Below are positions 9,422 to 53,899 of a stretch of 64,000 bases of DNA, in pieces. Under the pieces are notes generated by a model. The model worked only from the letters and a program-made list of their open reading frames with translations. It made no database searches and had not been told where the DNA came from. How positions within the stretch are numbered: the first letter of the stretch is position 1; each line of letters begins with the position of its first letter. The DNA is from Pseudobdellovibrionaceae bacterium (GTDB lineage: Bacteria; Bdellovibrionota; Bdellovibrionia; Bdellovibrionales; UBA1609). The stretch covers positions 963,402-1,027,401 of the forward strand of contig JACKAM010000001.1 in assembly GCA_020635075.1 (NCBI GenBank). Reading direction: 5' to 3'. Position numbers and translations under genes: made by a program.

Positions 9422-11224
9422 TTAGTCAAATGGGGAATCCTCATCGGTTGAGGACTCGCCCTCTTCGCCTGCGGGCTCAGTTATTGTGTCGGCATCGGCG
9501 GGGATCACGTCGGTTGTGGGTTCTTCCTCCGTCGCCTCTTCCGGGGGAGATGTGGTTTTCTTTTTTACTGGCGCGGGAGGAGTTGTGACGGACGGGGGAG
9601 AGGGAGCGGTAACTGTCGTACCCACGGGCCTTACTTTGGAGGTGGAGCCGACGGGCCGCAATCCTGGTTTGGTCGCAGGCGGTGAGACGGGTTTACTCTC
9701 AGCCTTAGATTCCGTCACCGGTGTTGGTGGGGGCGTTGGACTGGTTTGAGCCGGAGCTGGGTGATTGGTTGGGGGAGATTTCGAGTCCTCTGCGGCAGAT
9801 TGTTTCTTCATGACAGGACGGGGTTGAGGTTTCGCTAGCACCGGCTTTGGTTTTGGCTCAGGCGGTGGACTGGCCTTTCTTGCCACTGGTCTGGGTTTCT
9901 CAGCGGGAGCTGTGGTTTTCTGCTCGCGAGGAGGTGGTGGTGGAGCCGGAGCCGCCTTGGTCTCAGGCGGTTTGGGTTTGTTCTCTTTGATTGCAAGGGG
10001 TGAGGGGGCTCTTGATACGGGTTTTGAAGGCGGGAGAGCTTCCTTTACGACTTGGATGATTGGCTTCTCGGAGGACTTGGGCGCCTTTGGATCGACGGGT
10101 GTCTCAGTCGGTGGAGGTGGAGCTTCATCTCGCTTTTCCCTGGGATCAGGAAATACCTCAGGTAGAGCTTTACTCAAGGTCCGAAACCAAATGGGAGTCA
10201 AGGAAGCCGTGTCAGACTGGAGTTGTACCCGATTTAGGGCAATCTGCCGCAGATACTCGGGGTGTTGCATGGGGTGGATGTGCTGAGCCTTGGTCGGTTT
10301 GATGGCCGTGGCATGGGAGTTAAAGGCGACAAAATGTTGAATGGTTGAATCCTCTAGCAAGTAGTTGAGAAAGTCATGGGCCTCATTGAGGTGAGAGGTA
10401 GTTTTTGAGATACCGACCAGGCTGATCCACAAGTTGGTTTTGTCCTCGGGAAGCCAGTAAGTGGGGGGTGTTTCCCCTTGATTCATAATCACTTCGGAAG
10501 CGGGCCCATTGGCAACCTGAATCACATCGGCTTTGCCCTGTTTCCACATTTCGCCAGGCAAATCATTGGAAATGGACACTTGATCTAGGAGATCTTTGGT
10601 GGCCATGGCCAGCTGTTCCCACTTTTCCTGTTCCAGCCACTCGGGAAGGAGGGTGCCCGTTTTTTCAAGAAAACTAAAAATCTCGACCTGTTGAGGAAGT
10701 AGGGAAATACGTCCCTTTAGCTTTTTGTCGATCATCAGAGATTTCATGTCACCCGGAGGCAAGCCCACCTTGGGATTCCAAAGAAAGCCGTTGAGTCCCC
10801 AATTTAAAGGGAGAAGGAAACGAAAATCAGGATCATAGGCAAGGCGGATGAAATCAACGGAGACCTTACTGATTTTAGGGATTCGTGATTTGTCTAAATC
10901 AGCAAAAATTTGCGAGCCGACGGGGTCTTGAGCCATGTAGGAGAAAAGCTGTATCAGGTCGTAGTTGGCCGGCCGCTCGGAAATTTCCTCCCAGAGGGCT
11001 TGATCCGTCTCCATGGGGATGCCTACGACCTGAATGCCGGTTTTCTCCTCGAATCCAGTTAAGACCTGAGGGGGCAGGTAACCTCGACGATAAAGGAGCT
11101 TGATCTCTGTGCCGGCCCGGTTGCGAAAGAGGAAGCGCTTTTCAATACTGCGCAGTCCCCACCAGGTTCCCATCAAAAAAGAAAAGGGAATGACCAGCAC
11201 TAGTAACTTTAGAAACCGGTTCAT
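9422..11224 (-). CDS. membrane-anchored PotD-like solute-binding domain fused to a ~245-aa Pro/Ala/Lys/Thr-rich tail
   Basis: N-terminal TM (LKLLVLVIPFSFLMGTWWGL), then about 340 aa with periplasmic-binding-protein character, then low complexity (PPPTETPVDPKAPKSSEKP...) ending in an acidic tail. Confidence 0.7.
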   Translation of the reverse strand: MNRFLKLLVLVIPFSFLMGTWWGLRSIEKRFLFRNRAGTEIKLLYRRGYLPPQVLTGFEEKTGIQVVGIPMETDQALWEEISERPANYDLIQLFSYMAQDPVGSQIFADLDKSRIPKISKVSVDFIRLAYDPDFRFLLPLNWGLNGFLWNPKVGLPPGDMKSLMIDKKLKGRISLLPQQVEIFSFLEKTGTLLPEWLEQEKWEQLAMATKDLLDQVSISNDLPGEMWKQGKADVIQVANGPASEVIMNQGETPPTYWLPEDKTNLWISLVGISKTTSHLNEAHDFLNYLLEDSTIQHFVAFNSHATAIKPTKAQHIHPMQHPEYLRQIALNRVQLQSDTASLTPIWFRTLSKALPEVFPDPREKRDEAPPPPTETPVDPKAPKSSEKPIIQVVKEALPPSKPVSRAPSPLAIKENKPKPPETKAAPAPPPPPREQKTTAPAEKPRPVARKASPPPEPKPKPVLAKPQPRPVMKKQSAAEDSKSPPTNHPAPAQTSPTPPPTPVTESKAESKPVSPPATKPGLRPVGSTSKVRPVGTTVTAPSPPSVTTPPAPVKKKTTSPPEEATEEEPTTDVIPADADTITEPAGEEGESSTDEDSPFD

Positions 11225-11259
11225 TCCCTTATGTTAAACTGACGCGTTAGGTAGACCAA

Positions 11260-12348
11260 TTAGATTTCAATATTAACAGGATCGAAGTCGACCAAGATCT
11301 GAGCCCCGGCCTGAGGGATGTAATCCCCGTAGAACAAAATGCTATTAGCCTCAGCATTATAGACCCAACCACCAGACAGGGGTCCAGGATTTTCCTCGAC
11401 CCGCGGCACGAATTGTCCGTTGACTTTAACTGTAATGCTCTCAGGAATTGGCTCTCGCTTGAGGAAGAACTGAGTCGAGAGAGTCAGAATATTCTCTGAG
11501 ATGGTTTCAAGTTCGGTAGCGAAGTCACCGCAGAGACTTCCGACCACGCCGCCAGCGGCTTCAGCCATGGCCTGGTTACGCTTGCCGTAGATGCGGCCAC
11601 CACCCGAAAGCGCTGAGAGGCAATCAGAATCGCCATCGCGAATAACAATGGAGTTGACACTAAACCGCTTGGTCGCCCCGCTCGAGTTCGTGAGGGTCTC
11701 CAAGTACTCCATATATTTGGCAATGGTATGTCCCTTTGCTGAATCGTAATAGGAGTGACCAGGATTGGTGTAAGCGTCGTATTGGTTCTTAATGTAGGCG
11801 CTACCATCGTGAGAAAAGTCGTCTTCGTCACTGACAAGGATGACGGCAAAAAAACTGTCCGCCCTCAAGAAGCCGGCATTCCCGGGGTTGTTAAGTGCCC
11901 AGGGGATGCTGTGAAGCGTCCGCTCATCACCGTAGCCGCTGGTCCCAACCATGATATTGCCAATAAAGACGTTGGCAATGTCTGGGGTTTGCGGCGTGAT
12001 GACGGGAACTCCTCCGGCGCTCTTAAACAGAGAAACATTGGAGTTACCAGTAAAGGCTTCACGATAGGCATCGGAGCCAATGACAGCGATCCGGTAATCG
12101 AAACTTCGCGAGGCGAAATCGCCAATAAAGCTTTCGAAGTTATCAGCAATATTTTGTTGCGAAGTGTGCATCGACCCTGAATTGTCGATGACCCACAGCA
12201 AGTCAATCTTGGCCGACACCGCGCCAGTGTTCTGAAAGAACACTTCCGTGTCTGGCAAAATTGAAAAACTGGGTGAATTCTTATCACACCCAACCGTCAA
12301 CAAAAGAACGGCGAAACTAACGCCCAATAAAGCGCCTGTTCTTTTCAT
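11260..12348 (-). CDS. von Willebrand factor A domain lipoprotein
   Basis: Lipobox LLTVGC and MIDAS motif VIDNSGSM. The start is set at the internal MKRTGALLG; the track ORF extends to 12396. Confidence 0.8.
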   Translation of the reverse strand: MKRTGALLGVSFAVLLLTVGCDKNSPSFSILPDTEVFFQNTGAVSAKIDLLWVIDNSGSMHTSQQNIADNFESFIGDFASRSFDYRIAVIGSDAYREAFTGNSNVSLFKSAGGVPVITPQTPDIANVFIGNIMVGTSGYGDERTLHSIPWALNNPGNAGFLRADSFFAVILVSDEDDFSHDGSAYIKNQYDAYTNPGHSYYDSAKGHTIAKYMEYLETLTNSSGATKRFSVNSIVIRDGDSDCLSALSGGGRIYGKRNQAMAEAAGGVVGSLCGDFATELETISENILTLSTQFFLKREPIPESITVKVNGQFVPRVEENPGPLSGGWVYNAEANSILFYGDYIPQAGAQILVDFDPVNIEI

Positions 12349-32835: not shown

Positions 32836-34635
32836 TTGACCCAAAAATCGGGTATTCTCAAGGTTTTAGGCGGCCCCGAGTTTGCTTTTAATGGTGCCAT
32901 GAGCTTGCGTAGAATCCCCCCCCCAAGAAAGCCACAAAACCATGGGTTGGCCTTGATCTACTTGATTCTTGGCACCTTGATCTTCTGGCTGGGAGCCTGT
33001 GGGCCCCGTTCTCGGCCTCAGGGTCGAACAAGCCCCCATCAGGGGCAGGAGCCTGCCCCTATCGACATGAAGTTGGGAGTTGAGGTGGATCGGGCGGCCT
33101 TTGATTCCTTGCCTCTGGTGATGGCCCCATCTACCAGCCCTCGGTTCTCTGGAGGCGGACCCGCGCCCAAAAAAACCGACTATGTGATTTTTCAAAATCC
33201 ACTGATCGAACCGCCAAAGATGGGTTCCCGAGAAGTTACTTTTAAAGTGACACTGGTTACTGGAAGTGGGTCCAATCCGATATCCCTCGGTGGCGAAATT
33301 CAGGATTCGGGTCGGTTTAATCTGGATGAAGAAAGGCCCAGTGCCAATGGAGCCCCTCTGCGTGCCATTGGTCAGTGTCTTGAACTTAGTAGCTGTTCGG
33401 TTCTTTATGTGGACGTCTTTTATGTAGAAAATGGACAGCACCGAAAGCAGCAATTTCTGTATCAGGGGCATGGCAGCACCAAAGTGACCGGACAGAATTC
33501 AGGCAAGCAGAGCCCGGGAGCGGGAAGCGGAGTTGAGGCCAAGAGTGGACCATGTGATGAGTTTGAAGGCTGTGAAGGCCAATTTGTCGGACACCGGGTT
33601 GAAGAGACCTACTATGATAATCTTCACGACTGGAAAGATAGGGATGGGAATGCAGAGCCTGGAACTCAGGTGAAGGGTGAAAACCAACCATCGGGTCCGC
33701 TCCTCCTGCCTGGGGCAGACACCAGGACAGATGGAGTTCCATCGAGTCAGGTGGGTGTTGAAGTGCGCAAGGAGGGGTCCGAAGGCTCTCCTGGCGAGGT
33801 CAAGGCCCCTCCTGAATCTGAAGAGGTCGGAGGACAGGGAGTTCCGGTGATTTCCGGAGAAGTCCGTCAAGAGGAAGCGCCTGCAGCCCCCTTGGGAGAG
33901 AAACCAAGAATTTCGGGGATGCTGCAGTTGGATGCGATGGACTTAAAGGAAGGGGGGCAGAGCGTGGGTTTACCCTATACGATTTGCTTTGAGCCCTGTG
34001 CCAGCGGTATGTGTGTGAAACGAAAGTGTACCAAAGAGGATACCCATCGCAAAGATGGCGCTCTGACCGAAATGGATCATGGGCCTAATTTCCTTGAACT
34101 CGGAGGAGGTCCTGGCTTTGAAAAACTAAACCCACGGCGGGATCATCATTATGGATCAGGTCTGCTGGTGAGACTGTTGGAGAAATCCGCATTGGTCTTT
34201 CGCGAGGAATATGATCAGAAGTCGCTAATCCAGATTGATGATATGAGCAAAAGAAGGGGAGGTCGACTGGGTAGCCATTCAAGTCACCAAAGTGGGTTGG
34301 ACGCGGATATAGCCTACCTGGATGCCCAGCCCCGTTGGAGATCAGTCGTGACTGATGGCGTATTGGCTGAGGACTTTGATCTTGAACGCAATCTGCGCTT
34401 CTTCAAGCTCCTGGTTGACACTGGCTATGTAAATCGCATTTTTGTCGACCAAAAAATCAAAGAGGCTGCATGTGTTTGGTCAAAAGACAGCGGGCAGCAA
34501 AGGATTTTCAATGAAACTCTCATGCGCATGCGCCCTTATCGGGGACACGATGATCACTTTCATCTACGACTGCGCTGCTCTGACTACTATCCTCTGTGTC
34601 GAGACCAAGTTCCGCCGGGGGATTTGGGCTGTTAG
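32836..34635 (+). CDS. MepA-like (peptidase M74, LAS-fold) murein endopeptidase with a ~400-aa N-terminal extension
   Basis: C-terminal HSSHQSGLDADIAY and GHDDHFHLRL match the MepA zinc and catalytic motifs. N-terminal anchor/lipobox WLGACG. The alternative ATG at 32899 is likely. Confidence 0.8.
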   Translation: MTQKSGILKVLGGPEFAFNGAMSLRRIPPPRKPQNHGLALIYLILGTLIFWLGACGPRSRPQGRTSPHQGQEPAPIDMKLGVEVDRAAFDSLPLVMAPSTSPRFSGGGPAPKKTDYVIFQNPLIEPPKMGSREVTFKVTLVTGSGSNPISLGGEIQDSGRFNLDEERPSANGAPLRAIGQCLELSSCSVLYVDVFYVENGQHRKQQFLYQGHGSTKVTGQNSGKQSPGAGSGVEAKSGPCDEFEGCEGQFVGHRVEETYYDNLHDWKDRDGNAEPGTQVKGENQPSGPLLLPGADTRTDGVPSSQVGVEVRKEGSEGSPGEVKAPPESEEVGGQGVPVISGEVRQEEAPAAPLGEKPRISGMLQLDAMDLKEGGQSVGLPYTICFEPCASGMCVKRKCTKEDTHRKDGALTEMDHGPNFLELGGGPGFEKLNPRRDHHYGSGLLVRLLEKSALVFREEYDQKSLIQIDDMSKRRGGRLGSHSSHQSGLDADIAYLDAQPRWRSVVTDGVLAEDFDLERNLRFFKLLVDTGYVNRIFVDQKIKEAACVWSKDSGQQRIFNETLMRMRPYRGHDDHFHLRLRCSDYYPLCRDQVPPGDLGC

Positions 34636-34683: not shown

Positions 34684-36276
34684 ATGAAAAATCTGAGCGC
34701 AAAATCCACAATCGTATTCGGGGCGGTTCTTGTGAGCCTGTCATTTGTTGTTCTCTCTCTGTCGAGCTGCACAAAAGTTCAATCGTGGTGGCAGGCCCGG
34801 CAAGAGATTGAATGGCGCAAAGATGGAATGGAATCGGCTCTGGCCGAGGCCAAGAAAACAAATCGACCATTGTTTGTTTATTGGGGAGCAATTTGGTGCC
34901 CTCCCTGCAATGTCCTAAAGGCTAAGGTGTTTCCTGATTCGGACTTTAAGCAGGCGGTGAGCTCTTTTATTCCGGTTTATTTGGATGGAGACACGGAGAG
35001 CGCTCAGCTGTGGGGTGAAAAGCTCAATGCCAGCGGTTACCCGACCTTGATGGTTCTTAACTCCGCAGGTAAAGAGGTGGTTCGTCTGTCGACCAATGTC
35101 TCGGCCACCGAGATTGCGGAAGTCCTAAAGGATGCCTACAACGTGTTGTCGCCAGTGCCGGAATTATTGAGGGAAATCAAAAATGGAGCAAGGAAACCAG
35201 GACCCGAGGAGTGGCGCCTCTTGTCTCGCTATTCCTGGGATCAAGATCCGGCTTTTGATGAGTTGCGAGCTGAATGGGGAGAGAGCTTGTGGAGCCTAAA
35301 GGAACAAATTCCCGAGTCCTCTGGTGCCGAGAAAGCGCGTCTGGGCCTGGTCTCATTGCGTTTACGGCTCGGCGAGGGACTGGAAAAGAAGAAATTGAGC
35401 CTGGCACAAAAGGCTGAGTTTCTCGCATGGCTGGAAAAGCTTTTTCAACAGGAGGGTCTGCTTCCGGAGCTCGTCGGGGAGCTCTCCGGATTGGCTGGTT
35501 CTATCCACTCAGGTCTGTTCGAGGAAAAAGAAAAGAGGGCTAGACTTGAGTTTGGCCAAAACTACAAGAGAATGATGAGAAACATCCTGCAATCACCTAA
35601 AGTCAGTTGGGATATGAGACTCAATGCTTTGTATCCGGCCATAGATCTGGCACAGACTGACGAAAAGTCCTTTCCCCTCTCAGATGAAGAAAAACAGACG
35701 GTTGTTGATGAGTGCGAAAAAGCGCTGGCAGCCGCAGCCAAGAAGGAACAGAGAGTGGCGGTCGTGAGTGACGTAAGCTATTACTTGGGTGAAGTGGGTC
35801 AGCCAGGGCGAGCCAGGGATATCCTCAAATCCGAAATGGAAAAAGGTCTCAACCCCTATTACATGATGTCAGGCCTTGCCTACTTGGAGAACAAAGCAGG
35901 GAATAAGCAGGAGGCCTTGGATTGGCATAAACAGGCTTACCAAAAGGCTGAAGGTCGGGCGACCCGAATTCAGTGGGGAGGCAAGTACCTCAAATACTTG
36001 GTTGAAGTAAAACCTGAGGACAAAGCTGGAATCATGGCGGAACTCAAATCCTTTTACACGGACAATCTGAAGACCAGCGATGCCTTCATGGGTCGCAACA
36101 AAAGAGTGTTGGATAAGCTTCGCAAGAGTCTGGTGAAGTGGGGAGAGGAGAGGAAATCTGGAAGCGAATTACAGGCTCTGGCTAAAAACCAAGACCAGGA
36201 ACACTGCAGTCAGCAAAGAGTTGGTTTTACGGAAACTTATCTGAGTTCGTGCAAGGAGTATTTCAAGGGGTTTTAG
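34684..36276 (+). CDS. thioredoxin-fold lipoprotein with a helical C-terminal domain
   Basis: Lipobox LSLSSC, and YWGAIWCPPCNVLK (WCxxC) in a DUF255/thioredoxin-like N-domain. Confidence 0.8.
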   Translation: MKNLSAKSTIVFGAVLVSLSFVVLSLSSCTKVQSWWQARQEIEWRKDGMESALAEAKKTNRPLFVYWGAIWCPPCNVLKAKVFPDSDFKQAVSSFIPVYLDGDTESAQLWGEKLNASGYPTLMVLNSAGKEVVRLSTNVSATEIAEVLKDAYNVLSPVPELLREIKNGARKPGPEEWRLLSRYSWDQDPAFDELRAEWGESLWSLKEQIPESSGAEKARLGLVSLRLRLGEGLEKKKLSLAQKAEFLAWLEKLFQQEGLLPELVGELSGLAGSIHSGLFEEKEKRARLEFGQNYKRMMRNILQSPKVSWDMRLNALYPAIDLAQTDEKSFPLSDEEKQTVVDECEKALAAAAKKEQRVAVVSDVSYYLGEVGQPGRARDILKSEMEKGLNPYYMMSGLAYLENKAGNKQEALDWHKQAYQKAEGRATRIQWGGKYLKYLVEVKPEDKAGIMAELKSFYTDNLKTSDAFMGRNKRVLDKLRKSLVKWGEERKSGSELQALAKNQDQEHCSQQRVGFTETYLSSCKEYFKGF

Positions 36277-36461: not shown

Positions 36462-37013
36462 ATGAGTATAAATCAAAATACACAAAAGACCATGATTGAT
36501 GAGATGACTCAGTCAGGAATTCACACCTTGACCATCGAGCTCGATCTTAACTCCTATGATGAGGACAAAGCCAGACAGGTGGCCAGTGAGTTTGCTGACC
36601 GTCTCAGCGACCAATCTCTTCCTGTTGAAGAAGAAGATGACGACTACGGAGAGGGCCTCAGTGATTCAGGTGAGCGGCGTCGGCACACGAGAACGCCATC
36701 CACCTTGCCCGCAATGGCACATAAGATTCTGGCCAGCAGTCCGTCTCATGAACCAGTTAAGGGTTTTGTCGTGAATATGAGTCTCACCGGAATGGCGTTG
36801 ATCTCCGAGTCTGAAGAGATTTGCAAGGGTGACGTTGTTGAGCTTGAAATCATGGATGGGGTTATCCCTTTTTCGGTGTGCGCTCTTGTGGTCAAAAAGA
36901 ACCCTGTCTTTGGTGCGGCTAGGCCTCACTTTTCATATGGCTTTCGTATCATGAAGATGAATCAGCAGGCACGGACCTCCATTGAGCGAATTGTCTCCGG
37001 CCGAGCGGCCTAA
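36462..37013 (+). CDS. PilZ domain protein with an acidic N-terminal region
   Basis: RRRHTR (RxxxR) followed by NMSLTG (D/NxSxxG). Confidence 0.8.
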   Translation: MSINQNTQKTMIDEMTQSGIHTLTIELDLNSYDEDKARQVASEFADRLSDQSLPVEEEDDDYGEGLSDSGERRRHTRTPSTLPAMAHKILASSPSHEPVKGFVVNMSLTGMALISESEEICKGDVVELEIMDGVIPFSVCALVVKKNPVFGAARPHFSYGFRIMKMNQQARTSIERIVSGRAA

Positions 37014-39161: not shown

Positions 39162-40766
39162 TTGAATGTCACGGGAGGGCCCTTGGCAAAGAGTTTTCGT
39201 AAACTTGGAAAATACACGCTCTTAGAGCGCCTCGGAGCAGGAGGCAGTGGGGAAGTCTATTTGGGTTACACCCAGATGGCCCCAGGGCTCTTTAACTTTT
39301 TTGCCGTCAAGATTCTCACCGCCGAACAGTCTTCCAATCCTCGAGCATTAAAAATGCTTCAGAGAGAAGCCTCATTGGCCAATGTGCTTAAGCACAACTC
39401 TATTGTTTCTCTCTATGAGTGTGGTCATGACGATGAGATCTTTTATGTGGCCATGGATTATGTGAACGGGTTGCCCTTAAGTCGACTCATGCATCACCAC
39501 ATGACCCGCAAGCCGATCATCAAAATGGAATATGCCATCTATATTGCTCGCGCCGTGGCCGCGGGACTGGAATATGCAAGGACATGTAAAAACCCTGAGA
39601 CAGGGCAAGAACTGGGGATTGCCCATCGGGACATTTCACCGCAGAACATCATGGTGAATTTCGAAGGGGAAGTGAAAATTATCGACTTCGGTCTGGCTCG
39701 CTCAGCCGGGTTGGGCGACAAGACCCAATCGGATCAGATTATGGGTAAGCTCAAGTACATTAGTCCTGAACACGCCAGTGGCGAGTCAGTTGATCATCGA
39801 ACCGACATTTTCTCCCTTGGCGTTGTCCTGTGGGAGATGCTGTCAGGAAGGCGGTTCTACCAGGACCTGCAAGACGCACAGATTGTCAGCTGGCTCAACA
39901 ACCCGGATTACACCAGTCTAAAACAATTTGTTCCTGGAATGTCAGATGAGCTGGATCGAATTGTCCAGCGAGCGGTGGCTGGTCAAGCCGAGGATCGTTA
40001 TCAGACGGCCGGAGAACTACATGACGATCTTAACCGGTACCTCAATAAGAACTTCCCGGACTTTTCGCCCAGCGAATTCAGGCGTATTTATCGCCATGAG
40101 TTCGAAAATGAAATGAAGGAAAGAGATCATAAACTGGCGAGTTATCTAACCGACATCGAAGTGTCTGAAAAAAAATACCAAAAGACCTTTGATCAGTATG
40201 CGGATATGGTTGATCGCATGGGAGTTTTAGTTGAAAAGGAATCTCCCCATAAAAACACCGAGGAAGCGGTCGAAAGATTCAAAAAGGCCCGCCAAGCGAT
40301 CACAGAAAAGAAGAAGCGAAATCGAGGAATGTGGCGGCACTATGAGCTCAAACAGGCTATGTCTTACTCCTGGAAGCTTGGAGCCGCACTTCTGGTCTTG
40401 TCACTCATGTGGTCCAGGGCGGCCAACAAAAGCTATGGTGAGTTTATGAAGGGGGCGTGGGTTACAATGAGGCAGGCATTGGGGTTGAGTACGGAAACCC
40501 GTGACGTGGCGAGCATCATTGCGGACGAACAGAACCTCGGTCTTAAATATCCAGACAAACCATTTACGGTACAGATCCGCACGCGACCGACTGGAGCGCG
40601 AATTTATCAAAATGGAAAGCTCTTGCGTTTGCGAACGCCAGCCCTGGTGAGGGTTTCCAATGCTAAGACGGCAAAAATCAGCCTTGAATCAAAGGGGTTT
40701 CCGGTGCGAAATCTCCAAGTCAAACCCTTCGAAGAAGATGTCTTCATCGATTTTCGTAACCAATAA
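39162..40766 (+). CDS. Ser/Thr protein kinase with a TM segment and a C-terminal PEGA-like domain
   Basis: GAGGSGEVY (P-loop), AVK, HRDISPQN, DFGLAR and SPEH. There is a TM at about aa 395, and the tail is IRTRPTGARIYQNGKLL. Confidence 0.9.
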   Translation: MNVTGGPLAKSFRKLGKYTLLERLGAGGSGEVYLGYTQMAPGLFNFFAVKILTAEQSSNPRALKMLQREASLANVLKHNSIVSLYECGHDDEIFYVAMDYVNGLPLSRLMHHHMTRKPIIKMEYAIYIARAVAAGLEYARTCKNPETGQELGIAHRDISPQNIMVNFEGEVKIIDFGLARSAGLGDKTQSDQIMGKLKYISPEHASGESVDHRTDIFSLGVVLWEMLSGRRFYQDLQDAQIVSWLNNPDYTSLKQFVPGMSDELDRIVQRAVAGQAEDRYQTAGELHDDLNRYLNKNFPDFSPSEFRRIYRHEFENEMKERDHKLASYLTDIEVSEKKYQKTFDQYADMVDRMGVLVEKESPHKNTEEAVERFKKARQAITEKKKRNRGMWRHYELKQAMSYSWKLGAALLVLSLMWSRAANKSYGEFMKGAWVTMRQALGLSTETRDVASIIADEQNLGLKYPDKPFTVQIRTRPTGARIYQNGKLLRLRTPALVRVSNAKTAKISLESKGFPVRNLQVKPFEEDVFIDFRNQ

Positions 40767-45987: not shown

Positions 45988-46512
45988 GTGTGCAATGCCC
46001 TCATAAAGGCTTTTTGGTATAGTCGGTCTATGGCCAGCTCTCCCGAACCCCAGGAAAAGATTCTCATCGAGACCATTCCCTCCCAGGACACCTGGGCCTT
46101 TCGCCAAAAAGTGCTACTGCCCCACCTGTCCGTCGAGGAATGTCGATTCAGTAACGACAACATGTCGGGATCCTTTCACCTGGGGGCCTTTGTTGAAGGC
46201 AAACTCACCGGCGTCGCATCTTTTTATCCCGAGATTAATGAGAACATTGCCTACTCAGGCAAAAACCCCTACCGACTCCGACAGATGGGCACCCTTCCGG
46301 AAATGCAAAAGCAAGGAATAGCACGAAAGCTGTTGGACACCGCCGTCTCCTACCTGCAAATGAAAAACTGTGAGCTCCTGTGGTGTCACGCCCGAGAAAA
46401 GGCCTTCCCTTTCTACGAGAAAATGGGTTTCACCTATCAGAGTGATCTCTTCGATGTCCCCAATATCGGCCCCCATCGGCTCATGACTCTCGACGTTCCA
46501 CCGATGGATTAA
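45988..46512 (+). CDS. GNAT-family N-acetyltransferase
   Basis: QKQGIARKLL (Q/RxxGxG/A acetyl-CoA motif) and C-terminal FYEKMGF. The start may be 46030. Confidence 0.8.
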   Translation: MCNALIKAFWYSRSMASSPEPQEKILIETIPSQDTWAFRQKVLLPHLSVEECRFSNDNMSGSFHLGAFVEGKLTGVASFYPEINENIAYSGKNPYRLRQMGTLPEMQKQGIARKLLDTAVSYLQMKNCELLWCHAREKAFPFYEKMGFTYQSDLFDVPNIGPHRLMTLDVPPMD

Positions 46513-46522
46513 CGGGCTTGAC

Positions 46523-47512
46523 TCAAAAACACTCGGTTGAATTGTCTTCTATACGACCCCAGATGAATGTCGGTGCCGTTGAACCCAAGGCCCAGTGAGC
46601 TAGGCCATCATCGTCCCAGGCCACGGCAATTGCTGCCAGACTCATTTCCCGTTCAAGCCCTTCTTTAAGAATGTCTCCCAAGGCTTCAGAAAGCCCTTGG
46701 CCTTCATCCACCCGGGTGGCCACCCGAACAGCCAAGGCCAAATCGATGATTTGCTCTCCCCTCCCGGTACAACTGACCGCCGCCCGTCGGCTGGTATAGT
46801 TCCCGGCAATGGTTGGTGTGTCCCCAACTCGGCCTCGAGGCTCATAACCAACCCCACCGGTACTGGTGACACTGGCCAAATGTTTTTTCCCATCCAGACT
46901 CACACATCCTATGGTGCCGTGGGAGCCCGTCCGACGCGGATTCTCCATCATCTGCTTGATCCAGCGAGCACTACGGGTCGCCGTGACCATCTCAAATCTT
47001 GGTAAATCCCACTGGCGGATCAGGTCTTCAACACCATCCGCATCACGGATGCCGTGCTTCTCCCCCTGTAAAGCAAAGGCCAGCAGGGAGGCGAAGGGAT
47101 AATCCTGCCCGTTCATCACAGCTGTAAACTGTCGATATTGGCTCTCCATAAAACTGGCACTCAAACGGGCCTTGCCGTCTTCCTGTAACACGCTACCAAT
47201 TCCGGCATTAAAACTTGGGTGCCTTTCCATAGCCACGGCTACATTTAAAGCCATTCTGGTCGCTGGGCAATCCACCTGCCGGGCGGGGTGCGACAGCCAA
47301 CCCAACTCAGCGGGAGGTTGAGTTTTATGCTGCAACTCCGAGATGATCGTTTGCAGTGCTGTTCGGGCCTCTTGAATGCGCTCACCCTTAGGGTCCCCCG
47401 GGCCGGCTCCACCGTGAATCAAGGTCAATGGTCTCTGAACCAAGTTACCGAGCTCACGACTTCCAGTGCGCAAATAGATCTCTGACAATCTCTCATCCAT
47501 GCTCAGCTCCAC
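46523..47512 (-). CDS. isoaspartyl peptidase / L-asparaginase (Ntn hydrolase, Asparaginase_2)
   Basis: HGTIGCVSLD (autocleavage Thr), TSTGG and GRVGDTPTIAG. Confidence 0.9.
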   Translation of the reverse strand: MELSMDERLSEIYLRTGSRELGNLVQRPLTLIHGGAGPGDPKGERIQEARTALQTIISELQHKTQPPAELGWLSHPARQVDCPATRMALNVAVAMERHPSFNAGIGSVLQEDGKARLSASFMESQYRQFTAVMNGQDYPFASLLAFALQGEKHGIRDADGVEDLIRQWDLPRFEMVTATRSARWIKQMMENPRRTGSHGTIGCVSLDGKKHLASVTSTGGVGYEPRGRVGDTPTIAGNYTSRRAAVSCTGRGEQIIDLALAVRVATRVDEGQGLSEALGDILKEGLEREMSLAAIAVAWDDDGLAHWALGSTAPTFIWGRIEDNSTECF

Positions 47513-47649: not shown

Positions 47650-48312
47650 TTGCCACTTATCAAGACCAGAGGATTTTCACCTATGAGTTCCCCTCGCCAA
47701 AGTTTTTGGAGCCTCTATGATCAAATGGAAGATCATCAAATCGATGGCCTTCAATTGCACGATGTGGTTTTAATCGTAAGGTCCATTGCCCCCAAGAATC
47801 GCAATCACTGGCTGGCCTGGAAGACCGGAGAAAAATCCTGGAAGCCCCTTTTGGAGTTTTCAGAAATCGAACAAGGTTCAAAGGAGGAGGCCCCGCCCCT
47901 TCCCGGCATGGGACCAGACGAGGAAGTCACCAAGACCGTGACTTTTATCCGCGTTGGACAGCTACCAAACACAGAGGAAGAGGGTGCCGTGGGTACCGGA
48001 AGCTTAATGATTGAGGACATGGATACCGAAGACCGCCGTTCCTCCACTCGCTTTCACAAGTCATTTAAGGTAAAAATCGAGGGCACCTCCGGGCAGGTCT
48101 TCAAAACCAACACTCTTGATGTGTCACTCGACGGAGTGCAGTTGCAGGAGGCTGTTCCCGACTGGTCGGGAGAGCTCTTCCGCATGGAGCTCTGGCGTGG
48201 CGATGAGCATATCGATGTGCTCTGTGAGCGGACTGGAAAAGGCGAGCACACAACCTTGATCATTCGAGAAAATCCGCGGGAGGAGCTCCTGCGCAAGTGG
48301 TTATTAGGGTAA
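47650..48312 (+). CDS. PilZ domain protein with a GYF_2-like N-terminal segment
   Basis: RRSSTR...DVSLDG. The N-terminus is W..Y....DGL......LAWKTGEKSWKPLLEFSEI. The likely start is the ATG at 47683 (AGAGGA upstream). Confidence 0.8.
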   Translation: MPLIKTRGFSPMSSPRQSFWSLYDQMEDHQIDGLQLHDVVLIVRSIAPKNRNHWLAWKTGEKSWKPLLEFSEIEQGSKEEAPPLPGMGPDEEVTKTVTFIRVGQLPNTEEEGAVGTGSLMIEDMDTEDRRSSTRFHKSFKVKIEGTSGQVFKTNTLDVSLDGVQLQEAVPDWSGELFRMELWRGDEHIDVLCERTGKGEHTTLIIRENPREELLRKWLLG

Positions 48313-48313
48313 G

Positions 48314-49096
48314 ATGGAAGGCATTCGTCTACACAATTGGATTTCTCGCATCCTTGGCCTGTACAAGAATAATGAAGTTCTATCACCAAAACTGACCACC
48401 CAACGCCTGGCGGCTGAAAACTCGCTTGATCGCAGGAAGGCGGCGCGGATTCACTATCCAGAGCACGGGGCGGTGGGAAATCTTCCGGAAATTCATTTTG
48501 AAGGAAAACCCATGCGCATATATGACATCAGTCTGGGAGGGACCTGCCTCATCGATGACTTGGATTATCTTCAATCGACAGCTGGCAACACCATCACCCT
48601 TGATTTGGTTTGGAAGGACAAAGTCATCCCCCAGCCATCCTTGATCGTGGCGGCCGGCTTTGACAAAAGGCACATCCGTTTTTTGGATTTGGACACTCAG
48701 TCCTATGTCCGCCTCAATCTGCTTCTTAAACCCGGTTATCTAGGCTTGCGCATGAGGAAAATACCAATGGACGATGCCAAACATCTCCAGGTGGGGGCCG
48801 AAGAGATGTGGGTCGGAATTTCTGGCGAAGCCATTACCCTTTTCCCCAATATGGAAAAAAACCTGCCCATTGGGGAGATCACTCTGTACGGACATAGCGT
48901 CCTGGTATATGCGGATGCCCCGCCGGTTTATAAATTTCAAAGCCGGGACGGCCTCCCGGGACAGAGGATTCGCGAACAACTTCTCCATGACCTTTTGATA
49001 TTTGCTGTGAACATCAAGAACCCCAGCGAAAGGATGATGGACCTCATCTACTGTCTCACCGATGCCCACAAAGAACACGAAAGGCGTAAAGAGTGA
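48314..49096 (+). CDS. PilZ domain protein with an unknown C-terminal domain
   Basis: RRKAARIHYPE...IYDISLGG, with a 1-nt gap to the upstream gene. Confidence 0.8.
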   Translation: MEGIRLHNWISRILGLYKNNEVLSPKLTTQRLAAENSLDRRKAARIHYPEHGAVGNLPEIHFEGKPMRIYDISLGGTCLIDDLDYLQSTAGNTITLDLVWKDKVIPQPSLIVAAGFDKRHIRFLDLDTQSYVRLNLLLKPGYLGLRMRKIPMDDAKHLQVGAEEMWVGISGEAITLFPNMEKNLPIGEITLYGHSVLVYADAPPVYKFQSRDGLPGQRIREQLLHDLLIFAVNIKNPSERMMDLIYCLTDAHKEHERRKE

Positions 49097-51183
49097 AAAA
49101 CAGTGATCAACTTTCTTTTGATCACTTTCGCCCGGTAATAAAACCGGGCCGCATTCTTCCTCAAGGATCCAAGATCATCTACGAAACCAGTGAGCCTTTT
49201 AACCAGATCATCCTGCCCATCGAGCTTGCCGACCTGTTGGTGCTGTGTAACGGCAAGTTCACCATGCGTGAAGTGATTGAAAAGATCTATAAACGACAAG
49301 GTGTGGTGCACTTCAAGTCTGTCTTTACTGCCATCTACCGTTTGAAGGACAGAGGGTTCCTTGAAAATGGTGGGGAGTTGATTGACTCGCCCACCAGGAC
49401 CCATCTGACCGAACCTCATCAGTCGGTCTTTCTTAGGCCATTGATTGAAATCTTCTTTGGTCAGCGGATCAGTAATGACAAAACCCATCCTTTCCTGTTT
49501 TATTTTCTATCCATGGCCATGATTGTCCTAGCCCTCCTTGGCCTGCAGAATATCCCCAGCGATTTTTTTGGCACCAAATTCTTTCGCATTAACGGCAGCT
49601 ATGCTCTAGGGGTTCTCTATTTTATCGGTCTCTCCAGCATACTTTTGTCGTTAAAGAGTTTTTTTAAGGCGATCATGCTTTTGTTCCTCACGGGACGAGT
49701 CTACAACTTTCGCCTTGTTTTGAACCTTTTTGGTATTCACTTCAAGGTGGGAAACGAATCCCTGTTTCTCCTTTTCAACAAGCTCTATTTGACCATTTTT
49801 CATCTGAGCCTTGCCCTTTCTCACTTTGTTTTTGTTTCTATTCTTTACTGGCTCACCCCGGATCTGCCGCTGTTAAGTCAGTCTCTATTTATCGCTTTGG
49901 TTTTGACCCTGATTGACCTTAACCCGTTTACCGAGAGTGAATTCTCCCTCTATTTCAAGGCCCTTTGCGAAGATGATGGCCTCAATCAACTCACCGCCTA
50001 TATCCCCAACAAAAATCTTTTGAGCGTCCTGACCCCCTCCGGCAATTCCCGTTACCAGGGAGTGGTCTTGGCTTTCTGGCACATGGCGGGACTGTGGATG
50101 ATTGCCACCTGTTATCTCCTCTATCAGGTCAACAAACACAACTCGGCCCTTATCCGCTTCAGCTTGGAAACTGACCCTCACGCGGAAAAGATCGCAGCCC
50201 TGGTATTGGCCGGGCTCTATCTCACAGCCATTGTGGTCCTTTTACAGGATATTTACCAAGTCATTATGCCTCTCATATCCAGGCCCATCAAAAATCGTTA
50301 CCATCGAGTGCTTCGTCGCTTTCGCAGTATTAAATCCTCGGACTTCACCCCGGAATCACTACTATTTGCCGTTCGTGATTTGCCCTTGTTTTCCTATTTT
50401 TCAGACCCTCTCCTGGAGAAGGTGATCCGGCAATCCCAGGTGAGATCCTTTCCGGCTGGTACCAGAGTGATTATTCAGGGAGATGTGGGGCGACACATGT
50501 ATGTTCTCCTGCGGGGAGGCCTGGCTGTGCGAAGAGCAGCGAATAGGGGCGCTGAGAAAATTGGGGAAGTTCTGCCGGTCTCTATTTTTGGCGAAGTTGC
50601 TGTCATTGAGGAGATCCGCCGGACGGCGGAGGTTGTCACTGAGGAACCAAGCGTAATCCTGGAGATTCCGGCTGAAGTGATACGCGAAGCCTCAGCCGAA
50701 TCCCAGTACATTCGTGAAATAGAAGATTTCAAGAATGCCATTATGGTCTCGCAGTATTTCACAAGTGCCCCCATGTTTCGTAATCTGCCAGAGGATATCG
50801 TCCAGCTGTTTCTAAGCCATGGGCGAATTGAACCCGCTCGCGAAGGGGAGATCGTCTTCCACCAGGGAAGCCGAGGAGATGGGTTTTACCTACTGATTCG
50901 TGGCTCAGTTGGAATCAGCATCAACGGCGTCCAGGTCAAAAAAATCCATCAAGGGGGATTTTTTGGGGAAATATCTGTGATAGCCGATATTCCCAGGACG
51001 GGAACTGTGACGGCCTTGGAAAACACACTGTTGTTGAGAATTAGTAACGACGCGTTTTGGGAGATCGTCACCCAAAACATTGAAATGGCCATGTTCATTG
51101 AGTCTGTCAGCGAAATGCGCATTGTCGAGGACATCGAGCTACTCAATCGCGGCATCCCTCAACAGGGGCAAGCGGTCGGATGA
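49093..51183 (+). CDS. polytopic membrane protein with a PqqD-like N-domain and two C-terminal cyclic-nucleotide-binding domains
   Basis: GTGA overlap with the upstream stop. The N-domain is ILPIELADLLVLCNGKFTMREVIEKIY, followed by about 8 TM helices. The CNB motifs are FGEVAVIEEIRRTAEV and FGEISVIADIPRTGTV. Confidence 0.85.
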   Translation: MKNSDQLSFDHFRPVIKPGRILPQGSKIIYETSEPFNQIILPIELADLLVLCNGKFTMREVIEKIYKRQGVVHFKSVFTAIYRLKDRGFLENGGELIDSPTRTHLTEPHQSVFLRPLIEIFFGQRISNDKTHPFLFYFLSMAMIVLALLGLQNIPSDFFGTKFFRINGSYALGVLYFIGLSSILLSLKSFFKAIMLLFLTGRVYNFRLVLNLFGIHFKVGNESLFLLFNKLYLTIFHLSLALSHFVFVSILYWLTPDLPLLSQSLFIALVLTLIDLNPFTESEFSLYFKALCEDDGLNQLTAYIPNKNLLSVLTPSGNSRYQGVVLAFWHMAGLWMIATCYLLYQVNKHNSALIRFSLETDPHAEKIAALVLAGLYLTAIVVLLQDIYQVIMPLISRPIKNRYHRVLRRFRSIKSSDFTPESLLFAVRDLPLFSYFSDPLLEKVIRQSQVRSFPAGTRVIIQGDVGRHMYVLLRGGLAVRRAANRGAEKIGEVLPVSIFGEVAVIEEIRRTAEVVTEEPSVILEIPAEVIREASAESQYIREIEDFKNAIMVSQYFTSAPMFRNLPEDIVQLFLSHGRIEPAREGEIVFHQGSRGDGFYLLIRGSVGISINGVQVKKIHQGGFFGEISVIADIPRTGTVTALENTLLLRISNDAFWEIVTQNIEMAMFIESVSEMRIVEDIELLNRGIPQQGQAVG

Positions 51184-52061
51184 GTCTTGGCCTCAATGCC
51201 CTACTTGTCGAGGATTCCACAGCCACCAAAGCCCTTTTCTTTCTCGCCCTGGCATTTGTCTTTTGCTTTCTGTCGCGCAAACACTTCTATTGGTTTACAT
51301 GCATATGCCTTTTCCTGGCTCTTGGGGTGATGGCCAGCCGGATCATGTGGCCAGGAGTCTTGATTCTCTCCATCACGGGAGGACTTCTCGCCGTCTATCA
51401 TCTTAAGATCAACTTGCCCATGTGGGGGCGTTTGGCTGTCACACTTTTGGCCCTCGGAATTGGAGCGGCCTTGTCCCTTCACCTGCTTCCAGGCTTTGAT
51501 AACTGGCATGTTGGTCGCGACGTGATCAAGGGCTCAGGTAGGCCCTTTCAACTCTATCTCAATTTTGATAAACCCTTTTTTGGAGTGGTGTTTTTTGCTC
51601 TCGCTGGGCAGGCAGCCCGCAGCCAGAAGAGCTGGAAAGTGATCCTTAAACCAGTCTTCATTGCGTTACCAGGCGCACTGATTGCTGTTTTGGGAGGAGC
51701 TTTCACTCTCGGGTGGCTCAATCTTGAAGTCATTTCTCCTCCCGATTGGATCGGCGTTTGGGTCTTCAAAAATCTATTCCTCACTGTTATTGCCGAAGAG
51801 GCTTTGTTTCGGGGCCTCATCCAGAAAGAGCTTCACCAATATTTGCCGTCAAAATGGAAGTGGCTGGCTCTGGTTATGGCCTCTTTTCTCTTTGGTCTCG
51901 CTCACTTCGGGGGCGGGACTCGCTATGTGCTTGCCGCCACCTTTGCCGGTTTGTTTTATGGGTGGGTCTGGCAGAGGGCTGGACAGCGCCTAGAAGCCTC
52001 CATTCTCACCCATTTCGGCCTTAACCTCACCCACCTACTCCTATTCACTTATCCACAGTAA
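51180..52061 (+). CDS. CPBP-family (CAAX/Abi) intramembrane metalloprotease
   Basis: ATGA overlap with the upstream gene. Motifs are EEALFRG, FGLAHF and HFGLNLTH. Confidence 0.9.
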   Translation: MSLGLNALLVEDSTATKALFFLALAFVFCFLSRKHFYWFTCICLFLALGVMASRIMWPGVLILSITGGLLAVYHLKINLPMWGRLAVTLLALGIGAALSLHLLPGFDNWHVGRDVIKGSGRPFQLYLNFDKPFFGVVFFALAGQAARSQKSWKVILKPVFIALPGALIAVLGGAFTLGWLNLEVISPPDWIGVWVFKNLFLTVIAEEALFRGLIQKELHQYLPSKWKWLALVMASFLFGLAHFGGGTRYVLAATFAGLFYGWVWQRAGQRLEASILTHFGLNLTHLLLFTYPQ

Positions 52062-52090
52062 AGCCAACGTCTCACAGTGAGACGTTGGCT
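52062..52090. terminator. perfect 13-bp hairpin immediately after the operon stop (terminator-like, no strong T-run)
   Basis: AGCCAACGTCTCA-cag-TGAGACGTTGGCT starts 1 nt after the 52061 stop. Confidence 0.5.
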
Positions 52091-52279
52091 TGCACGAGAT
52101 GTGTGGATTTTTGAGGCGATTTCAACCCCTTAAAGGGAGAGGATAATTTCTTGATTTCCAGCCTCCAGCTTGCCCGACTTTTGGCCGACAAAAATGATAC
52201 ACTGATAATGCGCGAAGGGTATGAATCTTCAGTGATCGCCACGTCTTAGGCGAATAAACTCTGGTAGAGAAAGAAGGGC

Positions 52280-53899
52280 ATGGTCGGTAAGAGAAAGCTT
52301 CCTTATTTGGCTTTGGCAATTCCCGTTTTACTTTTGGGTATTTTGGGTGCTTTCAATTCCTGCGAAGGAAAGTTTGAAGCCAATAACAAGAGCTGCCAAC
52401 CACCCGGAAACCTGTCGCGTAAACTTGATCCCAAACTGGCTCTGCTTCACTACACCTCTCCTTTTGCAAACGGCAAAGTTATGCTCGGTCAGTACAGGAT
52501 TGAAAGCGGCGGGGCCCAAATTCATTCCAAAGTGAAAGACAATCCAATCACACTTCCTGCAGGAAGCCAGCTAGCGGCACTGGTAAACACCTCTTGCCTT
52601 GAGCAAAAACGGCAACAGGGAGAGATGCCACCGCCTTTGAGCGTTGAAGTCGCCGATGGCCGGGAGATTCTGCCAGGCCTTGATAAACAGGCCTTTTCAT
52701 TTATGACGACGACGGACCTGGACGTGGCTGAACTGGAAGCCGAGGCCGCCAGCGACCGCTGCGTAGTGGGCATCAGCTACAACCACAAATATGACCTTCA
52801 CGCCAACTATGATGATCCCGGCGCATACTACCAAAATCATTTGGCTTCCCTTCATGGGCCCGTGGCCTACGATGGCTTTTACCATCCTCAGTATGGAATG
52901 CCCATGAACTACAACGGGCGCGAGCCGATCATTGCCATAGTCGATACTGGGGTGGATTACAATCACCCCGACATCTCCTCCCGCATGTGGCGCCATCAGG
53001 ATGGGATTGGCATCGACGCCACCACCATCGGCACAGCCTTGGTCGATTACAATCCGATGGACAACTCCCCTATTTCCCACGGCACCCACGTAGCAGGCCT
53101 GGCGGCTGCTGCTGGCAACAATGGCGTCGGGGTCACTGGAACCATGCCTTTCTTTGCCAAAATTATGGCCATCCGCGTGTTCCGCAAAAATGGTAATAAC
53201 TTTGAAACCACAAGTGAGATTGTTTCCAACGGAATCCGTTTTGCCTTTCTCAACGGAGCAGACGTTATCAATCTCAGTCTTGGCCGATTGACCAATGGTC
53301 CGGACTCAGATCCTTTTTATTTGGATGCCATCACTGAGGCCGTGAACGCTGACGTGGTGGTTGTCAGTGCAGTGGGTAACGCGACAAACAGTTCCCCAGC
53401 ACAAGAGGTCAATGGCACGAGTTTCACTTCCTTACCGGCCATGTATGGTGAATCCTTGGCCGGCATGATCACTGTAGGCTCGGTGGACAGTAAGACCAAT
53501 GCCTGGAGTTCATTTAGTCACTACAGCACCAAGTATGTGGAAATTGGGGCGCCCGGAGCTGAGGAAAATGGGACGGGTCTTTACTCCACTGTCACTCCCG
53601 TCGCCTACCACCAAAATCAACTCTACTCGCGACTCTCTGGAACTTCCATGTCAGCGCCCATTGTGACGGGTGCTGCCGCCCTGGTCGTGGGCTTGCTGAG
53701 AAACACATTTGGGGTAAAGCCCAAGGCATCTGAAGTGGAGCGCCTACTGACTGAAGGCGCGATTCAAGATCCAGGACTCACGGCTTATTACAAACAGGGG
53801 CGTCGTTTGGATTTGGAGGCTCTGATAAAGAAAGTCCACGAGGACTATCCTGAGACAATTGGTAACTCCCAGGGATTTTCGTCCCAGGGCTGCCCCTAG
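52280..53899 (+). CDS. secreted subtilisin-like serine protease (S8)
   Basis: IVDTGVDYNHPD (Asp), HGTHVAG (His) and GTSMSAP (Ser), with an N-terminal signal. Confidence 0.9.
   Translation: MVGKRKLPYLALAIPVLLLGILGAFNSCEGKFEANNKSCQPPGNLSRKLDPKLALLHYTSPFANGKVMLGQYRIESGGAQIHSKVKDNPITLPAGSQLAALVNTSCLEQKRQQGEMPPPLSVEVADGREILPGLDKQAFSFMTTTDLDVAELEAEAASDRCVVGISYNHKYDLHANYDDPGAYYQNHLASLHGPVAYDGFYHPQYGMPMNYNGREPIIAIVDTGVDYNHPDISSRMWRHQDGIGIDATTIGTALVDYNPMDNSPISHGTHVAGLAAAAGNNGVGVTGTMPFFAKIMAIRVFRKNGNNFETTSEIVSNGIRFAFLNGADVINLSLGRLTNGPDSDPFYLDAITEAVNADVVVVSAVGNATNSSPAQEVNGTSFTSLPAMYGESLAGMITVGSVDSKTNAWSSFSHYSTKYVEIGAPGAEENGTGLYSTVTPVAYHQNQLYSRLSGTSMSAPIVTGAAALVVGLLRNTFGVKPKASEVERLLTEGAIQDPGLTAYYKQGRRLDLEALIKKVHEDYPETIGNSQGFSSQGCP

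Follow-up and report, generated by a model that had tools for sequence, protein, structure and literature searches.

A conserved Bdellovibrionales gene module pairing PilZ proteins with a membrane protein that combines an RRE-like domain, an orphan six-helix fold and tandem cyclic-nucleotide-binding domains

The 64,000-nucleotide stretch of contig JACKAM010000001.1 analysed here (hereafter the window; assembly GCA_020635075.1, Pseudobdellovibrionaceae bacterium, forward-strand positions 963,402 to 1,027,401) contains a conserved and uncharacterised module in which genes for PilZ proteins adjoin a gene for a membrane protein with two cyclic-nucleotide-binding (CNB) domains. On the + strand, and in window coordinates throughout, it consists of the open reading frames (ORFs) ORF1 (47683..48312) and ORF2 (48314..49096), encoding the PilZ proteins, and ORF3 (49093..51183), whose 696-aa product unites three parts: an N-terminal domain resembling RiPP recognition elements (RREs; RiPP, ribosomally synthesized and post-translationally modified peptide), here in an unusual context, an orphan membrane fold and the CNB tandem. 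Comparison of related loci points to ORF2 and ORF3 as the conserved unit, usually accompanied by ORF1 and often with a gene for an S8 subtilase nearby. An earlier note on this DNA had suggested a membrane module with two PilZ and two CNB domains and had known of no characterised system of this composition. The first claim holds and is strengthened by the conserved adjacency and coupling of ORF2 and ORF3; for the second, literature searches returned no description of a PilZ and CNB membrane module or of an RRE fused to CNB domains. Tentatively, and with rather less than even confidence, we read the locus as a lineage-restricted second-messenger module of Bdellovibrionales, in which PilZ receptors for cyclic di-GMP (c-di-GMP) may act on ORF3 as a scaffold that senses cyclic nucleoside monophosphates (cNMPs).

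The layout proposed in the earlier note, four + strand ORFs joined end to end, was verified on the sequence: ORF1 and ORF2 are separated by a 1-nt gap (48313), ORF2 and ORF3 share a GTGA overlap (49093-49096), and ORF3 and ORF4, the latter a gene for a CPBP/Rce1-like intramembrane glutamic protease (51180..52061), share an ATGA overlap (51180-51183). The listed ORF1 begins at a TTG codon (47650); its true start is likely the ATG at 47683, which gives a 209-aa protein, has AGAGGA 9 nt upstream and coincides with the methionine at which the alignment of its homologs begins. With abutting or overlapping frames that are kept in relatives, ORF1, ORF2 and ORF3 fit a predicted operon, which would extend to ORF4 only within the clade of 77% ORF3 identity.

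Homologs of ORF3 were sought at three scales. A word-indexed search recovered 14 full-length homologs, and an exhaustive search of 1.84e9 proteins with a profile of residues 1-419 recovered 161 cluster representatives, of which nearly all are 650-720 aa long with two CNB domains. A scan of species-representative genomes yielded 29 loci, every one from a metagenome-assembled genome labelled Bdellovibrionales, Pseudobdellovibrionaceae or Bdellovibrionaceae. Neighbourhoods were compared from the called genes of metagenome contigs and by running the window proteins through tblastn against every fetched locus (designated by L numbers). Wherever a related locus includes DNA upstream of ORF3, the gene immediately before ORF3 is an ORF2 homolog, the junction measuring -8, -4, 0 or +6 nt across 33-77% ORF3 identity; this conserved translational coupling, as predicted from the junctions, is the strongest argument for a functional link between the two genes. 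Thirteen distinct loci, distributed over shallow and deep branches, carry an ORF1 homolog ahead of ORF2. Among loci of 39-41% identity with called genes, a DTW-domain gene occupies the place of ORF1 (L003:6594-7220, L008:4866-5510 and L010:5125-5769).

The PilZ domains lie at about 48031-48309 in ORF1, where the domain is C-terminal, and at about 48428-48715 in ORF2, where it is N-terminal. Both window proteins score under the gathering threshold of Pfam PilZ (PF07238, 22.5 bits), ORF1 with 16.9-17 bits and ORF2 with 12.9 bits (E = 0.15). Their families match the same model: 13 of 14 ORF1-family members (best 1.1e-5) and, at E <= 0.01, 21 of 28 ORF2-family members (best E = 5.9e-8), the homolog in L041 reaching 26.1 bits. 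The motifs RRSSTR...DVSLDG in ORF1 and RRKAAR...DISLGG in ORF2 (R41, R45 and D71-I-S-L-G-G76) correspond to RxxxR and DxSxxG. RxxxR and [D/N]xSxxG occur at the canonical spacing, about 30 residues apart, in all 27 distinct ORF2 homologs and are kept in 12 of 13 ORF1 homologs, and R41, R45, S73, G75 and G76 of ORF2 are invariant in 28 sequences. Because family members match PilZ and the motifs are conserved, the PilZ identity predicted by the earlier note for both proteins is secure at the family level despite the sub-threshold scores of the window sequences. The N-terminal domain of ORF1 (about 47683-47880) is conserved among homologs and is joined to PilZ by a variable linker; its proposed likeness to GYF_2 (PF14237) found no Pfam support, with no match for the window protein at E <= 1 or for 14 family members at E <= 10. 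The C-terminal domain of ORF2 (about 48716-49093), 125 conserved residues, matched no family, and profile searches with both families against PDB sequences returned nothing useful.

A third PilZ gene lies about 10.6 kb upstream of the module (36462-37013, +; 183 aa; Pfam PilZ E = 6.6e-10), flanked by genes for an M74 murein endopeptidase (32836-34635) and a Ser/Thr protein kinase (39162-40766), with a thioredoxin-like gene (34684-36276) in the vicinity. The order M74, PilZ, kinase recurs in L001.

At the opposite end of the module, the two CNB domains that the earlier note had placed at the C-terminus of ORF3 are upheld by family match, cassette and fold. The tandem spans 50350..51117 (residues about 420-675), where Pfam cNMP_binding (PF00027) matches two stretches (E = 4.6e-35; 119.9 bits, cut-off 27.5). 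Both domains have intact phosphate-binding cassettes (FGEVAVIEEIRRTA and FGEISVIADIPRTG), with FGE...RRTA in the first (G500, E501 and R510) and FGE...PRTG in the second (G625, E626 and R635); the 13 sequences compared share G500, E501 and R510 without exception and E626, R635 and T636 almost without exception, and G625 is likewise invariant or close to it. Foldseek matched the full-length model of ORF3 to the tandem CNB domains of PKA-R and PKG (E about 5e-16). CNB and transmembrane (TM) segments together also characterise Pycsar-like anti-phage effectors, which damage the membrane upon cyclic nucleotide synthesis, and PADLOC models of PycTIR/Pycsar effectors match ORF3 with E = 3.6e-25. Those matches are confined to the shared CNB domain, no cyclase gene lies nearby, and family-wide the neighbourhood is a stable, vertically inherited chromosomal region rather than a defence island; a role of ORF3 as such an effector is hardly credible, and assignment to a known defence system was rejected.

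Foldseek of the full-length model returned CNB matches only, and residues 1-419 were modelled separately (AlphaFold2, 81-sequence alignment; mean predicted local distance difference test, pLDDT, 89; predicted TM-score, pTM, 0.87). The N-terminal domain (49120..49383, residues about 10-97; pLDDT around 90-97) comprises strands 19-24, 27-32 and 37-42 followed by helices 43-51, 58-69 and 74-86, and this beta-beta-beta-alpha-alpha-alpha order is that of RRE/PqqD folds, not that of DNA-binding winged helices. The sole compact, small-domain Foldseek matches of the 1-419 model were RREs bound to leader peptides or the enzymes that carry them: LynD (4v1u; prob 0.97, rmsd 2.9 A over 79 columns), TbiB1 with leader peptide (5v1v/5v1u; TM-target 0.59-0.63) and the RRE of McbB. 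Strand beta3, with the motif QI[IV][LM]P, and helix alpha3 show high conservation within the PilZ-linked clade of the ORF3 family, and both diverge in distant members without PilZ neighbours. Of the PqqD-like start of ORF3 that the earlier note had perceived, the fold order and the structural matches to RREs stand, and membership of a Pfam or NCBIfam PqqD family does not; the modelled domain supports an RRE/PqqD-like assignment at the level of fold only. No precursor peptide or RiPP-modifying enzyme was found in the window neighbourhood or the related loci, and a scan of the flanking intergenic regions for a precursor-peptide gene gave unsupported short ORFs only.

Between the RRE-like domain and the CNB tandem lies a membrane domain (49444..50274, residues about 118-394) with six TM helices in the high-confidence model, not the approximately eight counted previously, and a cytoplasm-side beta-hairpin (residues 202-218). 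Its inner-leaflet half holds a cluster of conserved polar residues (S182, K188, K192, H237, D275, N277, P278, S282 and E283), and G201, Y303 and W335 are conserved as well. Foldseek found no PDB fold match for this domain at E < 0.1, and sequence searches found none in Pfam, NCBIfam or PDB sequences. The model thus predicts, with good confidence, a fold without a recognisable relative among solved structures.

The earlier note had seen in the segment DLNPFTESE a reminiscence of the NxxPxxxxDG motif of site-2 proteases (S2Ps), and it had proposed a comparison of ORF3 with the M50/S2P family. By eye, the membrane domain does look colinear with S2Ps (a helix, a beta-hairpin, an N-P-broken helix and an acidic residue at Asn+6), and hhalign against only two sequences, SpoIVFB and MjS2P, at low stringency gave a colinear alignment with P = 0.4. 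All formal comparisons, by hidden Markov model (HMM), profile-profile alignment and fold, were negative. As the earlier note had already stated, HExxH occurs nowhere in ORF3; across the 81 aligned family members, the corresponding helix never shows it and has K/R188 and K/Q192 instead, and the family motif [ND]-P-[FY]-x-x-S-[ED] differs from NxxPxxxxDG in spacing and lacks the DG. Neither the window protein nor 11 family members matched M50 (PF02163) in Pfam or NCBIfam at E <= 10, and a profile search against PDB sequences gave no matches. Foldseek of the pLDDT-89 model found no S2P in a PDB library that included MjS2P, RseP and SpoIVFB (with entries 3b4r, 7w6x and 8vjl), and hhalign against a 121-sequence M50 profile scored 12.9 (probability 0.16%), against 13.3 for reversed columns and 9.8-13.7 for 20 block-shuffled controls. 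Membership of ORF3 in S2P/M50 was accordingly rejected: it has no HExxH and no HMM or fold match, and its hhalign score equals that of shuffled controls.

An orphan membrane domain coupled to CNB domains might instead form a cNMP-gated transporter or channel, with the CNB domains as the gate and the PilZ proteins as c-di-GMP-dependent brakes or activators, comparable to PilZ in BcsA or to YcgR at the flagellar motor. Conserved K188, K192, D275, N277, S282 and E283 lie in or beside TM helices, and in the model a long continuous helix (residues 363-413) joins TM6 directly to CNB-A, as in CNB-gated channels; the cAMP-gated SthK also appeared as a weak, non-significant Foldseek match (8vt9, E = 1.2, TMq 0.21). 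Against this stand the lack of any significant fold or sequence match to a channel or transporter and the existence of soluble ORF3 variants, composed of the RRE-like domain and two CNB domains, which keep the same gene neighbourhood without the membrane domain. This is exemplified by L041 (826-5048), where the order is PilZ, PilZ, the soluble variant P0118 (394 aa) and an S8 peptidase. Since such variants keep their neighbourhood, the membrane domain would not be an indispensable output, and we regard a transporter or channel as unlikely, if still a serious possibility. Because the order PilZ-PilZ-X-S8 is retained, the soluble variants suggest a functional core of PilZ and RRE/CNB, with the membrane domain as an add-on for localisation or output.

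Under the second-messenger reading that we tentatively prefer, ORF2 would be made in fixed proportion with the membrane protein ORF3, and ORF1 would supply a second PilZ protein as a frequent accessory. ORF3 would present to the cytoplasm its RRE-like domain, as a docking surface for peptides or strands, and the two CNB domains, with the polar pocket of the orphan six-TM domain opening on the same side. The CNB tandem would sense cAMP or cGMP and pass the signal through helix 363-413 to the membrane domain and the RRE-like domain, and one or both PilZ proteins, when loaded with c-di-GMP, would bind to ORF3, the beta3/alpha3 groove of the RRE-like domain being the most plausible site. ORF3 could then respond to both messengers jointly at the membrane, the candidate outputs being a change in the state of the six-TM domain or the sequestration and release of the PilZ adaptors. 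A bolder version, which we hold to be doubtful, would make ORF3 the representative of a new class of membrane-signalling protein, in which an RRE-type domain, a kind otherwise known only in RiPP biosynthesis, captures PilZ proteins by strand addition and a new six-TM fold turns cNMP and c-di-GMP signals that coincide into an output at the membrane, such as control of the envelope or of secreted proteases in predatory bacteria.

Several observations weigh against the second-messenger reading. PilZ is not a universal partner, as distant ORF3-family members (L040, L042 and L043) have no PilZ neighbour, and in the L001 lineage the c-di-GMP motifs of ORF1 are lost. The RRE call is one of fold similarity only, with weak Foldseek E-values (0.24-1.7), and PqqD (PF05402) found no Pfam or NCBIfam match in the window ORF3 or in 11 family members at E <= 10. 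We infer the binding events, the docking site and the output alike, and the contact between PilZ proteins and ORF3 has the same standing. Finally, the whole region is syntenic throughout the family, with S8, M14, cytidine deaminase, APRT, BamB-like, TPR_21 and GDH genes, so that co-occurrence alone is weak evidence and may partly reflect vertical inheritance rather than functional linkage.

The S8 subtilase (52280..53899, +; Pfam Peptidase_S8, E = 5e-45), of secreted or lipoprotein type, raises a further alternative, namely that the module controls this neighbour, the RRE-like and six-TM domains holding its precursor or gating its export or maturation in response to c-di-GMP and cNMP. By tblastn, 21 related loci have an S8 gene 76-245 nt downstream of ORF3, and in L041 one comes after the soluble variant as well; in the L018-L033 clade the spacing of about 80 nt permits co-transcription, and RRE folds bind N-terminal leader peptides (5v1v, 4v1u). 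The S8 gene is, on the other side, absent from distant members and from the clade of 39-46% identity, where an M14 carboxypeptidase gene comes directly after ORF3 (L003, L008, L010, L012 and L015); the S8 gene always has its own intergenic region, and in the window it is displaced by the insertion of ORF4, with ORF4 and a strong hairpin between it and ORF3. Plain synteny may account for the link, and we consider control of S8 by the module improbable.

The N-terminus of the S8 protein is lipoprotein-like (...LGAFNSC...) and its C-terminus reads ...SSQGCP; weak PADLOC matches to 'subtilase' and IetS arise from the shared S8 domain. In the distant members L040, L042 and L043, a coupled gene of about 135 aa lies 3-16 nt downstream of the ORF3 homolog (L040:8138-8545, L042:4619-4990 and L043:8122-8532) and bears a T2SS-G/pseudopilin-like signature (type II secretion system; DxWGxPF...SCGPD..CGTxDDI).

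ORF4 was correctly recognised in the earlier note as a CPBP protease with intact motifs. It matches the Rce1-like/CPBP family (PF02517) with E = 1.6e-18 and 67.2 bits (cut-off 22.4) over a core at about 51753-52028, and EEALFR, FGLAH and HFGLN represent EExxxR, FxxxH and HxxxN. It falls well under every cut-off of the named myxosortase-type and CTERM-sorting CPBP subfamilies (NCBIfam Mrt*), the best match being the myxosortase core Mrt_core (45.7 bits against 100). The same note had made this protease the end of a single four-gene unit, and there the survey of related neighbourhoods decided otherwise. Only the window, L006, L007 and L011 (77% ORF3 identity) have a CPBP gene after ORF3, all loci at <= 55% ORF3 identity lack it, and CPBP homologs at 35-46% identity occur widely as stand-alone YdiL-like genes, two examples lying beside unrelated genes. 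Given this absence from relatives and its stand-alone occurrence elsewhere, ORF4 is excluded from the conserved core; we read it as a recent, lineage-specific insertion between ORF3 and S8 that has acquired the ATGA overlap, with co-translation predicted in its lineage. No compositional sign of recent transfer was found in ORF4, whose GC content is about 0.51, like that of its neighbours.

These findings bear on a proteolytic cascade of all four genes, in which ORF3 would be an S2P-like (pseudo)protease or substrate gate and ORF4 the effector, both under c-di-GMP and cNMP control. The ATGA overlap in the window, L006, L007 and L011, the complete set of catalytic motifs in ORF4 and the colinearity of ORF3 with HExxH...NxxPxxxxDG, seen by eye and in the two-sequence alignment, speak for it. 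The formal S2P tests of ORF3 (HExxH, HMM, Foldseek and hhalign controls) are negative, and the CPBP homologs occur in unrelated contexts. Because the CPBP gene is not co-conserved, the cascade is, as judged from gene content, already largely refuted, and we consider it very improbable.

The earlier note had further reported a hairpin of 13 bp (52062-52090) at the end of the unit. A perfect stem is present, with 14 bp and a 3-nt loop (52061..52091, +), immediately 3' of the ORF4 stop codon; with its outer stem it has a dG of -30.6 kcal/mol (z -5.7 relative to shuffles). No U-tract follows it, a simple terminator scan made no call there, and Rfam (gathering threshold) and tRNA scans of the whole 64-kb window were both empty. 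Two other features of the surroundings were recorded. In L006, an additional 133-aa gene with a signal-peptide-like N-terminus lies between CPBP and S8 (10992-11393, -), and no remnant of it was found in the window. Upstream of ORF1, between it and a gene for a 482-aa protein of unknown family, the interval 45988-47512 holds a GNAT acetyltransferase gene (+) and an Asparaginase_2-type gene (-), named after their syntenic counterparts in L006; the pair is confined to the window lineage and its 77% relative, and in L001 a 456-aa gene, at the position corresponding to the 482-aa gene, directly precedes ORF1.

If the second-messenger reading is true, c-di-GMP and cAMP/cGMP would converge at the membrane in a hard-wired manner, and an RRE-like fold would be used for the first time outside peptide natural-product pathways. 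Regardless of mechanism, the six-TM domain offers a well-predicted fold without a solved analogue and with a conserved polar site, and the small size of the module (two or three genes), conserved across at least 29 species-level genomes, makes it directly testable. Downstream analysis should leave the CPBP protease out of the system.

Several known systems share single traits with the module. M50 proteases (MjS2P, SpoIVFB and RseP) resemble ORF3 in having six TM helices and a C-terminal nucleotide-binding regulatory domain (CBS in SpoIVFB/MjS2P-type enzymes), as well as a helix with a beta-hairpin after it and, at the cytoplasmic side, a conserved polar site, whereas ORF3 has neither HExxH nor LDG and shows no HMM, profile-profile or fold similarity to them. 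The bacteriocin-transport-associated family TIGR03896 (cyc_nuc_ocin) has two CNB domains, as ORF3 does; the NCBIfam match is weak (51 bits, far under the cut-off of 161 bits) and covers the CNB region only, in a profile of 317 positions. Members of TIGR03896 are cyanobacterial, soluble proteins.

RREs bind leader peptides through a groove formed by beta3 and alpha3, the elements on which the conserved residues of the ORF3 domain lie. TbiB1, the LynD RRE and McbB, the best structural matches, show the same order of three strands and three helices; unlike RREs and PqqD, the ORF3 domain has no HMM similarity to these families, has no precursor or RiPP enzyme nearby and is fused to membrane and CNB domains.

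PilZ adaptors act on membrane machines, as YcgR does on the flagellar motor, and further examples are the PilZ domain of BcsA, Alg44 and MapZ. ORF1 and ORF2 likewise have canonical motifs and a genetic tie to a membrane protein, but their partner ORF3 is an orphan membrane protein predicted to sense a second nucleotide itself, and the N-terminus of ORF1 and the C-terminus of ORF2 match no described PilZ partner domain.

Predation, gliding and axenic growth are under c-di-GMP control in this bacterial group (PMC3271064, PMC6717892), and Bd1971 of Bdellovibrio bacteriovorus is a CNB-EAL phosphodiesterase whose activity rises about 8-fold with cAMP or cGMP (PMC6717892). Bd1971 and the module come from the same bacterial group, and the module, like Bd1971, would tie a CNB sensor of cAMP or cGMP to the c-di-GMP pathway. 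Bd1971, which degrades c-di-GMP, is soluble and consists of one protein; the module has two separately encoded PilZ receptors, and its CNB protein ORF3 spans the membrane with six TM helices, carries an RRE-like domain and has no recognisable catalytic domain. By analogy, Bd1971 offers the closest known logic, and in the module described here the convergence of the two messengers would fall instead at the level of PilZ receptors acting on a membrane protein.

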